Shown piece after piece: positions 46,101-49,100 of a DNA stretch of 64,000 nt; within the stretch, counting starts at the first letter, position 1, and the number at the start of each line of letters is the position of its first letter. Position numbers: made by a program. This stretch comes from Escherichia coli (lineage in GTDB: Bacteria; Pseudomonadota; Gammaproteobacteria; Enterobacterales; Enterobacteriaceae): NCBI RefSeq assembly GCF_045037415.1, contig NZ_CP173438.1; one strand, given 5' to 3'.

Positions 46101-49100
46101 GATGATCATTTGCGAGGATGGCGCTGCACTGAATGTCGCGGGTTGATGCGTCACCGGGTTGCCAAACTGGTCGTTAACGTGAGCTTTAACTGCTATGTCT
46201 TGTGCGACCATGACCTGACCTTCAGGTATCTCCTGACTGGTAATCGTCGCAGAATTAACATCTACCTTGGCATTCAGTAATCGCGAGATGACTTCAGTAG
46301 GTTTATCTGCCAGAGAGGCTGAAACTGTTTTTAGTCCGACCTCGGTGCTTGTCACAAGAATTTCAGCAAAAACCTGATCATCCGTTTCAACGCTGGTGCT
46401 GCTTAGCGTGACGGAGGTTCCACGGAAATTAACTTTTATACCTTCTACTGGGTTGCCGTTTCCATCAGTCACTGTTGCTTGTAGCCTGGTCATTCCAATG
46501 TTATTGGCGATGAAATTGTCCTCGGTAACGTTAAGATTAACCTGCGCAGTGAGCGTATCCGCAGTAAAGTTCACCACCAACTGCTCACTCTTACCGCCAA
46601 CCATCGATGCTGTCACGGTATGAGCGCCTGCTTTTGTACCTTTCAGCGTGACTTTCGCTTTGCCATCGGCATCAGTAACCGCTTTGTCGCCATCGCTCAG
46701 CGTGAAGTTCGCCTTCACATCTTCCGGTAGAGTAAATGTTACCTCAGTGTTGGCTATCGCATTGCCCTCTGTATCAGCGACGGTGCTGTTAGTGTCGTGA
46801 GATCGTTATTGTCGGCAATCACCGGATCCTTCGAGGCTGCCAGCGTGATTTCAGCATTCGTGACGTTCGGCACATAGTTCACTGTTTGTTGCATCGAATC
46901 GCCATTTTCGAGGGTTGCCGTCACGGGAGTTCTTCAGGCTGAAATCTTCATCCACGCCCAGCGTGATTCTTGCGGTACCGAAGCGGCTTAACCAGTCTGT
47001 CATTACCCCTGAAGCCTGAGAAGAGGCCCATCCACGTGCTATGTTTGCCGCTTGCTCGCTGTTCATATCTTCGGCGAGCAGAGATCCAATTAGCTGTGAA
47101 GTACTGGCTATCTGTTGCTCAAGGTTGCCACTGCTGTTACCCGGCGGCGGGGTTAAATTTTTTTCACTAACTTGTGCCTGGACATCCAGTTCATCACCCG
47201 GGCGGACATTACGAACAAACGTACGAAACTGGTTGAGTTTGCGTAACAGGGGGGTATCTATAATTTGTTGCACAGGACAAATATATCTGGCTTCTGTACA
47301 GAGTCTTAAATTTTGACCATAAATAAAACCGTCACTGTCAAGCATGCATAGTTTATCAAGTAGGTCTCCCACAAACTGCCTGAATTTTATTTTTCCATTA
47401 AAAGTTTGTATCTTCTTAAGTATCACAGGAGACTGGAAATAGATCGATAGTAGGATGTTGCCACTCAAGGCATGACGATAAATATCGCTAGGAGTAATTT
47501 TTTGTTTTATGGCTTTGGTAGTGATCTCAACTGCTTCCGTTATAGTGACCCATGTTGACATATAATGAGTTATAAGCAATGGCTGATATTTTTTTGACAT
47601 AATATTATCTCCTTCTACACAACAATTCGTTCCGTTAAGGAAAAAGATTGGTGTCACAAGTATTTATTTATGATTAATCAGAGGGTTTATGACAGAGAAA
47701 AGGATGTATATTTCTGAGTAAACATGTACAGGCCTATGGGGTGACTATTTAATGAGTAAATGCCGAATGATTTTCGGGGTGATGATTATAACTTGAGGAA
47801 AAATCCCAGCGTGGTTTGAGTAGTGTACCTGAGTGATATTTGTGTTATGTATGCATTGATTGTAGCAGAATAAATATAGTTCAGGCTAGTATAGTTTATG
47901 GTAGCTATGAGAATATATAATCTATTTTACCTATAAAATAATTTATATGTATGGGGTTGTTTTTTTAGGTTGTTTGTCTGTGCTTTTATATTCTGGAGAT
48001 GTGCCTTGTATATAGGATTGTTTGTTGGTTGTATTTTTTAATGTTGCACTGTTGTGAATTTTTATTTTGATATGATTATTTCTTTAGTATAAGGAGAGAA
48101 AGGAACGAGAAAGTTAAATCTATTTATCCTAATCGCAATTTCATTGTTTAAATAATCACTATGGATTAATATTTTTGCGACTCTGCTGAGTTACTGGTTT
48201 TAACTAGTGGTGTAAAAGGGATACCTTTTCGGTATCCCTTTTACAATAATCAGAAGAAATCAATTCGCGTATTGATACCGACGGTGCGACCCATATTGAC
48301 CTGCGCGACGGCGCTGCTGCCGTTCATGTAGCCATAGGTACGGTAACGACGGTCGAACAGGTTATCGACATAGACGGAAATGTTCATCCGTTCAGTCGCC
48401 TGCCAGCCCAGGCTGCTGTCCAGGGTGGCATAGGTGCCTTGCCGCAACTGGTTGTCGCCATCGAAATAATGCGGCCCGACCAGATTAACCGCCAGTCGGG
48501 GCATCAGTGCGCCATAGCGCGTATCAATCACGCCGTTCACGCTGCTTCCCGCGCCATAACGTGGTACGAACGGCACCCGGTTACCGTGATACAACTCACT
48601 GTCATTGGTGAATTCGGAACGGATCACGTTGCCATTGATATCCCATGACCAGCCTGGCGCAAACCGCCACTTCGCTTCAAGCTCAACGCCGGTGGCGTCG
48701 GCTTTACCCGCATTGCTTAATGTCTGCATCCCGACCGGGCCAGAGTAAAGCTGCATGTCTTTGGTGTGGGTATAAAACGTCGCGGCTTGCAGCGTGACGT
48801 CAGCGGTTTCGTAGCGGGTGCCAAGTTCATAGTTGATGGATTTCTCGGCGACGAACGGTTTGGCATCAAGACCCGCAGTAGGCACGATGTTGTACCCGGA
48901 AGGTTTATATCCCTGGGCTACACGGGTATACACTCTCCAGTCATCGGTCAGCATATAGCCTGCGGATAGCTGCCCGAGCACCTGATCGTCATTGCTCTTA
49001 CCCTGGTCGCCAAACGGGTTGCCGAGCATGCTGCCGTGATATTGTGTACTGGATTTATCATGCGAGAAGCGCACGCCGCCGCCGATATCAAAACGATCGG

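Follow-up and report, generated by a model that had tools for sequence, protein, structure and literature searches.

The AT-rich DNA behind fyuA in an Escherichia coli high-pathogenicity island belongs to the island, whose border lies inside yeeJ

Where does the high-pathogenicity island (HPI) of Escherichia coli end on its fyuA side, and to what does the AT-rich DNA found there belong? The question was addressed in a window of 64,000 nt, which is the whole stretch analysed here (contig NZ_CP173438.1 of assembly GCF_045037415.1, oriented opposite to the K-12 map). Directly behind the yersiniabactin receptor gene fyuA, an interval at 47658-48249 had been taken by the original prediction for an AT-rich joint between the HPI and the upstream region of yeeJ, devoid of the tRNA-Asn direct repeat. 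The comparisons described below place the joint elsewhere: the island accounts for all of the DNA from 47248 to 48249, and its border falls within the coding sequence (CDS) of yeeJ, 411 bp left of the flagged interval. We are highly confident that this interval is the surviving stub of the variable right part of the HPI, produced by a deletion, and not the joint to the backbone. The feature as such is real, ordinary and already described (Schubert et al. 2009, PMC2606025). The elements on which the argument turns are these:

48250-50271, minus strand: fyuA, encoding the yersiniabactin receptor and closing the conserved HPI core; 673-aa open reading frame (ORF), FyuA according to RefSeq in the collinear genome SK1144
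48211-48245, minus strand: hairpin immediately behind fyuA; two perfectly paired 15-bp arms around a 5-nt loop, the T-run lying partly inside the stem
47601-48249, no strand: AT-rich island-derived spacer from fyuA to the 308-aa island ORF; 31.3% GC, containing the flagged 47658-48249
47248-47600, minus strand: 5' end (codons 1-118) of the island gene for a 308-aa hypothetical protein, with its own ribosome-binding site AGGAGA and ATG at 47600
47247/47248, no strand: joint of the island to yeeJ, read as a deletion joint; 1-bp microhomology (C47247), frame kept, located by a four-way alignment
46851-47247, minus strand: yeeJ fragment forming the 3' part of a chimeric ORF; K-12 yeeJ nt 219 to ~550 (3214-3545 of the K-12 locus L002, 92.5% identity in blastn)

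From 47241/47248 through the 3' end of fyuA (tested to 48400), blastn revealed unbroken homology, one indel excepted, to HPIs of the integrative and conjugative element (ICE) type, with an identity of 98.5-99.1% to the chromosome of E. coli CRE10 (locus L004) and of 96.1-99.1% to the ICEKp-type ybt locus of a Klebsiella pneumoniae IncFIB plasmid (L003; NZ_CP031790). In both of these the spacer leads to a 308-aa hypothetical gene, an AlpA-family gene, a 60-aa ORF and a TraR/DksA gene, and past the 308-aa gene CRE10 additionally carries a DUF2857 gene, then a VirB-type type IV secretion system (T4SS), MobC and cargo. On the backbone side, homology to K-12 yeeJ in local blastn stops at window position 47247, which corresponds to L002 3214 and to nt 219 of the yeeJ CDS, and no part of the 64 kb matches K-12 L002 2637-3213, a segment that includes yeeJ nt 1-218 as well as the asnT 3' flank with the whole 370-bp intergenic region. 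The switch point in the four-way alignment reads GCGTAAC/AGGGGGGTATC (AGGGGGG after the bar), with C47247 as the only shared base.

The ORF that spans this point (46851-47600, minus strand) is an in-frame chimera of island and yeeJ sequence of 249 aa, annotated in RefSeq as "inverse autotransporter beta domain-containing protein". Its translation begins with MSKKYQPLL...QQIIDTPL (island aa 1-118) and continues as YeeJ from Leu74 (LRKLNQFRTF...); in tblastn, aa 1-119 of the 308-aa protein map to 47600-47244 with 95% identity. The RefSeq CDS starts with the ATG at 47600, while the GTG at 47657 is a mechanical ORF start only, and the non-coding stretch, counted from the ATG and not from the GTG, amounts to 649 bp. 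The YeeJ part of the chimera has lost its signal peptide and starts inside the LysM domain, the limits of which (~aa 51-99 in RefSeq numbering, 49 aa) were read from the deletion primers of PMC5595812 placed on the K-12 translation; Pfam detected no LysM in K-12 YeeJ at E values up to 0.01. On the chimera itself Pfam recognises only positions 3-64 of the 279 positions of IAT_beta, the sequence being cut short by another yeeJ deletion, an internal one at 46923/46925 (K-12 3545 to 7239). Hence, the identification of the left neighbour as a yeeJ remnant is valid from 47247 leftwards but not for the first 118 codons (47248-47600), which are island DNA, and the postulated AT-rich joint to the yeeJ upstream region has to be given up, as that region is absent from the window and the joint falls within the yeeJ CDS.

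If the island runs up to 47248, what has become of its right-hand repeat, and can the element still leave the chromosome? A search with CCAGTCAGAGGAGCCA (a 16-mer) at up to 3 mismatches on both strands returned three copies in the 64 kb (34572, 36981 and 38805), all of them in tRNA-Asn genes, which were assigned by their neighbours in SK1144 (ldtA/cobT, nac/cbl and yeeO/yeeN for asnV, asnU and asnW, respectively):

34572-34647, minus strand: tRNA-Asn at the asnV position; copy of the 16/17-mer in the same orientation as asnT
36981-37056, minus strand: tRNA-Asn at the asnU position; copy of the 17-mer in the same orientation as asnT
38805-38880, plus strand: tRNA-Asn at the asnW position; copy of the 17-mer, inverted relative to asnT

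From asnW (38880) to the right end of the window, a search for the right-hand 17-bp repeat at up to 3 mismatches gave no copy. The reported absence of the tRNA-Asn 3' end from the flagged interval was thus reproduced at the same tolerance on both strands, yet the absence of the 16-mer from these 592 bp has no statistical weight, because none is expected there by chance (0.44 matches per 64 kb at up to 3 mismatches). The discovery of the 17-bp repeat in the interval had been put forward as the observation that would overturn the assignment, and none is present; the test is not diagnostic, however, since the homologous fyuA-proximal interval of CRE10 is also without the repeat, its copies lying ~30-33 kb farther (L011 31942 and 34307).

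The attachment sequence attO is CCAGTCAGAGGAGCCAA (PMC2801613), and excision of the HPI in Yersinia needs Int together with the island-encoded Hef (PMC2704930, citing Lesic et al. 2004), which is classed among the AlpA-type recombination directionality factors (RDFs; PMC8844411). In tblastn with the AlpA, DUF2857 and TraR proteins no match was obtained in the HPI part of the window, and the sole weak AlpA-like match (8800-8961) is located in an unrelated degenerate island left of cobU. Compared with an ICE-type HPI, the window has neither the conjugation module (xis/AlpA, VirB T4SS, MobBC), its island DNA ending at 47248, nor an intact attR; compared with an excisable HPI of the Yersinia type, it has no island-encoded Hef, with no AlpA-family ORF in its island part. 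With the attR and the RDF gene both missing, the normal excision reaction would be left without substrate and cofactor, and the loss of the AlpA/Hef-type gene would, judging from sequence, give the island a further and independent cause of immobility.

The right end of the window falls among the irp genes, and the int/asnT end of the HPI lies beyond the window. That end can be viewed in SK1144, which is 99.98% identical to the window over 2485-41794 and 100% identical over a 47400-48500 probe; there the left end of the island comprises ybtS, an intact 420-aa integrase and asnT with one copy of the 16-mer. By proxy of SK1144, int and attL at asnT are probably retained in the window's island as well. 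The view that the island is probably fixed agrees with the missing attR and RDF gene and with Schubert et al. (PMC2606025), who concluded on a unique deletion, loss of the direct repeat and fixation of the island, and according to whom such an island has no exit by Int-mediated recombination between flanking repeats.

The island would nevertheless not be truly fixed if Int could use the identical 17-mer of asnU or asnV as a partner for the attL at asnT and so excise it occasionally, in the form of a circle of the HPI plus 11-14 kb of backbone, by our estimate ~45-48 kb in size. Exact 17-mers do stand in asnU (36981) and asnV (34572) on the same strand as asnT, and PCR on Enterobacter hormaechei has revealed circles in which HPI-ICEEh1 is combined with an adjacent module ending at another attO copy (PMC2801613). 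The E. hormaechei element, however, had the full ICE module, while no AlpA/Hef gene is left in the island studied here; moreover, on the right Int would have to work on a bare tRNA core that has none of the island's arm-type sites, and such an island is regarded as fixed in PMC2606025. Occasional excision by this route therefore seems very unlikely.

The frequency of the joint was determined in 5426 complete E. coli genomes with a 200-bp probe centred on it. The probe was fully covered in 2069 genomes, CFT073 and UTI89 among them, and a probe across the intact 308-aa ORF, indicative of the undeleted form, in 174. The sequence 47248-48249 is present in 2254 E. coli genomes, as against 2268 that match a probe with the fyuA 3' end; with HPI-side sequence in about 2244-2254 genomes, ~92% of the HPI right ends of E. 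coli have this joint. HPI-negative genomes match the yeeJ half of the joint probe only (~88%, with a 9-nt indel) and ICE-type genomes the island half only. The identification of the element as an E. coli-type HPI with a deleted fyuA-side border is well supported by the absent right repeat and by the recurrence of one and the same joint. This frequency, in combination with a microhomology of 1 bp, argues for one ancestral event.

A joint that arose repeatedly, at a recombination hot spot or through independent acquisitions of the HPI, could likewise be common, and it is carried by 2069 genomes while the HPI itself occurs in several phylogroups (PMC2606025). Such recurrence appears very unlikely: a 1-bp microhomology offers no mechanism for it, no alternative joint occurs among the matches listed (94.7-100% identity over the full probe), the 2069 deleted and 174 undeleted forms account for essentially all HPI right ends, and the trees of the flanks follow that of the HPI and not that of the backbone (PMC2606025).

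The GC content of 47658-48249 is 30.9%, versus 50.3% for the window and 59.6% for its ybt part, and no ORF of more than 26 aa is found in 47601-48249; the description of ~590 bp of AT-rich non-coding DNA behind a fyuA hairpin with a 15-bp stem was accurate. In every HPI variant the ybt genes are succeeded by AT-rich sequence (Paauw et al. 2010, PMC2801613). The hairpin at 48211-48245 folds as RNA with -24.8 kcal/mol (z = -6.15 versus shuffles) and is probably the fyuA terminator; it was not called by a consensus terminator scan, its T-run being too short. A promoter consensus scan yielded a single promoter-like site, located inside an ORF, and none assignable to the spacer, and an Rfam scan of 47000-48500 at E values up to 1 gave no match.

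That the ~590 bp are, or directly join, the native yeeJ upstream region, with the border somewhere within 47658-48249, might be read from the same non-coding, AT-rich character, from the adjacent ORF named an inverse autotransporter by RefSeq, and from the 370-bp intergenic region between asnT and yeeJ in K-12. This notion was refuted and is hardly credible any longer, as no similarity of the interval to the K-12 asnT-yeeJ region could be detected (a global alignment of the two contained no real homology, and local blastn was used in its place), and as the interval together with the next 353 bp is 96-99% identical to ICE DNA that leads there to island genes, not to yeeJ. The notion that 47248-48249 is a divergent native yeeJ 5' allele, acquired from E. 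coli by the Klebsiella and ICE copies, can practically be dismissed: although the yeeJ flank at the joint is only ~88% identical to HPI-negative alleles over 100 bp and yeeJ is polymorphic (PMC5595812), the first 118 aa belong to the 308-aa family, the gene stands beside island genes such as AlpA and TraR/DksA in the two ICE-type loci examined, the protein is without inverse-autotransporter features, the ICE homology runs past the breakpoint in ICE elements but not in the window, and the number of E. coli genomes with this DNA nearly equals that with the fyuA 3' end.

The 308-aa family comprises 344 homologues across Enterobacterales, and no inverse-autotransporter features were found in its island member. 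One protein cluster of this kind, P0001, labelled "hypothetical protein [Yersinia pestis]", was considered as Yersinia evidence and rejected, since it is mostly of Klebsiella origin and its sole contig is a 1.6-kb ICE-type fragment. In a FyuA-based scan with one genome per species only five ybt loci were retrieved (K. michiganensis, K. oxytoca, K. indica, Raoultella and S. diarizonae), none of them from Yersinia; in these loci, of the K. oxytoca group, Raoultella and S. diarizonae, homology ends at or no more than ~35 bp past the fyuA stop.

On these grounds, the following origin of the joint may be proposed. A progenitor HPI at asnT would have carried, downstream of fyuA, the AT-rich spacer, the 308-aa gene, a gene for an AlpA/Hef-type factor and more island DNA as far as the 17-bp right repeat. 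One illegitimate deletion event would then have joined codon 118/119 of the 308-aa gene (47248) to yeeJ nt 219 (47247), with 1 bp shared. On the island side, the last 190 codons of the 308-aa gene would have gone, together with the excision-factor gene, any conjugation module and the right repeat (the attR core), a loss of ~30.5-32.8 kb if the progenitor was CRE10-like and a smaller one if it was Yersinia-like. That the loss of the fyuA-side border reaches into the backbone is evident from the position of the joint at yeeJ nt 219 and from the absence of K-12 L002 2637-3213; the ~590 bp removed there would have included the asnT 3' flank, the yeeJ promoter region, the yeeJ signal peptide and half of the LysM domain. 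The outcome would be the in-frame chimera at 46851-47600 and an island with Int and attL, deprived of attR and of its directionality factor, which after one ancestral event would have spread together with its flanks via homologous recombination, as reported for the island and its flanks in PMC2606025. We infer the deletion, as opposed to some other rearrangement, as well as the size of the island-side loss and the loss of mobility.

Several points weigh against this account and should be borne in mind. The AlpA-family gene of the ICE forms is presumed, from its family assignment, to be the orthologue of Hef. The conclusion that the island would not be excisable by the normal Int/Hef reaction is drawn from missing parts and from the literature, and the 17-mers of asnU and asnV are in direct orientation with that of asnT. 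Finally, the progenitor may have been either Yersinia-like or ICE-like, and the size of the island-side deletion depends on its type.

The spacer itself varies among HPIs at one further site:

47954-47966, no strand: site of a ~208-bp indel; split blastn alignment with a 12-13-bp overlap, the extra bp being L004 8720-8926

These ~208 bp are carried by the spacers of CRE10 and the Klebsiella ICEKp and are missing from the common E. coli-type island. In the ICE-type forms the segment is bounded by imperfect 13-15-nt repeats, GGGGTGGTTTTTTT and CGGGTTGTTTTTTTT, also given as GGGKTGKTTTTTTT repeats. In five E. coli genomes (e.g. EC04, NZ_CM169497.1) the insertion sequence IS1 is inserted in the spacer at 47922-47931, where a 10-bp overlap of the blastn segments on its two sides fits a target-site duplication. 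In addition, about 20 Klebsiella plasmids (~165-300 kb) match only the 142 bp that follow fyuA (48108-48249) and then diverge, which would indicate another lineage of the ybt locus with a different downstream border.

To the right of the tRNA-Asn genes the window contains, in this order, amn, shiA, a family-9 glycosyltransferase gene (yeeL), the decayed yeeJ and, from 48250 rightwards, fyuA, ybtE, ybtT, ybtU and irp1; the conserved yersiniabactin core ending with fyuA is thereby present. Left of the chimeric ORF the decay of yeeJ continues:

44803 to ~46923-46925, minus strand: further yeeJ remnant with Ig-like repeats and large internal deletions relative to K-12; in RefSeq a frameshifted, incomplete pseudogene

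In blastn this remnant aligns as the blocks L002 9672-7997 and 7713-7239 of K-12, after which the alignment jumps from 7239 to 3545. The yeeJ flank next to the joint (47148-47247) is divergent, its ~88% identity to HPI-negative alleles over 100 bp being interrupted by a 9-nt indel, and this fits the "distinct mutation pattern" and the hitch-hiking of flanks reported by Schubert et al. (PMC2606025). According to Martinez-Gil et al. (2017, PMC5595812), yeeJ is polymorphic, CFT073 being treated as yeeJ-negative, and its position beside the asnT insertion hot spot may explain why truncated yeeJ genes are frequent.

A second, degenerate island occupies the window left of cobU (~2600-30000), with IS100, ISEc20, an ISL3 pseudogene, an AlpA-like helix-turn-helix gene (8781-8987), a Hha/YmoA remnant, an inovirus Gp2-family gene, zinc-ribbon genes, a TonB-dependent receptor and IbrB-like genes; several of its gene families recur beyond cobU in CRE10. 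The ICE-type island of CRE10 (L011 21069-31680) adjoins ldtA, i.e. the asnV position; among the functions it carries as cargo are a restriction endonuclease, an ABC-three-component system and a reverse transcriptase accompanied by a retron Eco8-family effector. The asn repeats of CRE10 at L011 31942 and 34307, one of them with 1 mismatch, are 2.4 kb apart, which suggests tandem elements.

To what had been described before, the present analysis adds the exact breakpoint, the in-frame chimera, the recognition of the AT-rich stretch as island DNA, the loss of the excision-factor gene and the frequency of the joint in 5426 genomes. It is because of this truncated border that the yersiniabactin island, which ranks as a major virulence determinant of extraintestinal E. 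coli, acts as a fixed chromosomal locus and has spread in the species via homologous recombination of large fragments and not by its own integrase (Schubert et al. 2009). The joint provides a convenient single-amplicon marker to tell the fixed type from the potentially mobile ICE type.

Among the known systems, the ICE-type HPIs (ICEEc1 of ECOR31, ICEKp1 of K. pneumoniae and, as their representatives in the present data, CRE10 and NZ_CP031790) match the window at 96-99% from the 3' end of fyuA through hairpin and spacer to codon 118 of the 308-aa gene. Unlike the window, they continue with the rest of the 308-aa ORF, AlpA, DUF2857 and TraR/DksA genes and have ~208 bp of extra spacer, and CRE10 differs further in its VirB T4SS, MobC and cargo, in a right repeat 30-33 kb farther and in its location at the asnV site. 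The HPI of Y. pestis and Y. pseudotuberculosis is, according to the literature, alike in its integrase/asn-tRNA system, in the same 17-bp attO and in an AT-rich segment after fyuA (PMC2801613), but it keeps hef and the right repeat, both of which are missing from the window's island, and excises (PMC2704930). The closest counterpart is the common E. coli-type HPI (PMC2606025), from which the window differs in nothing substantive: it likewise has a core ending with fyuA, a lost right repeat, a deletion of backbone DNA and no conjugative module.

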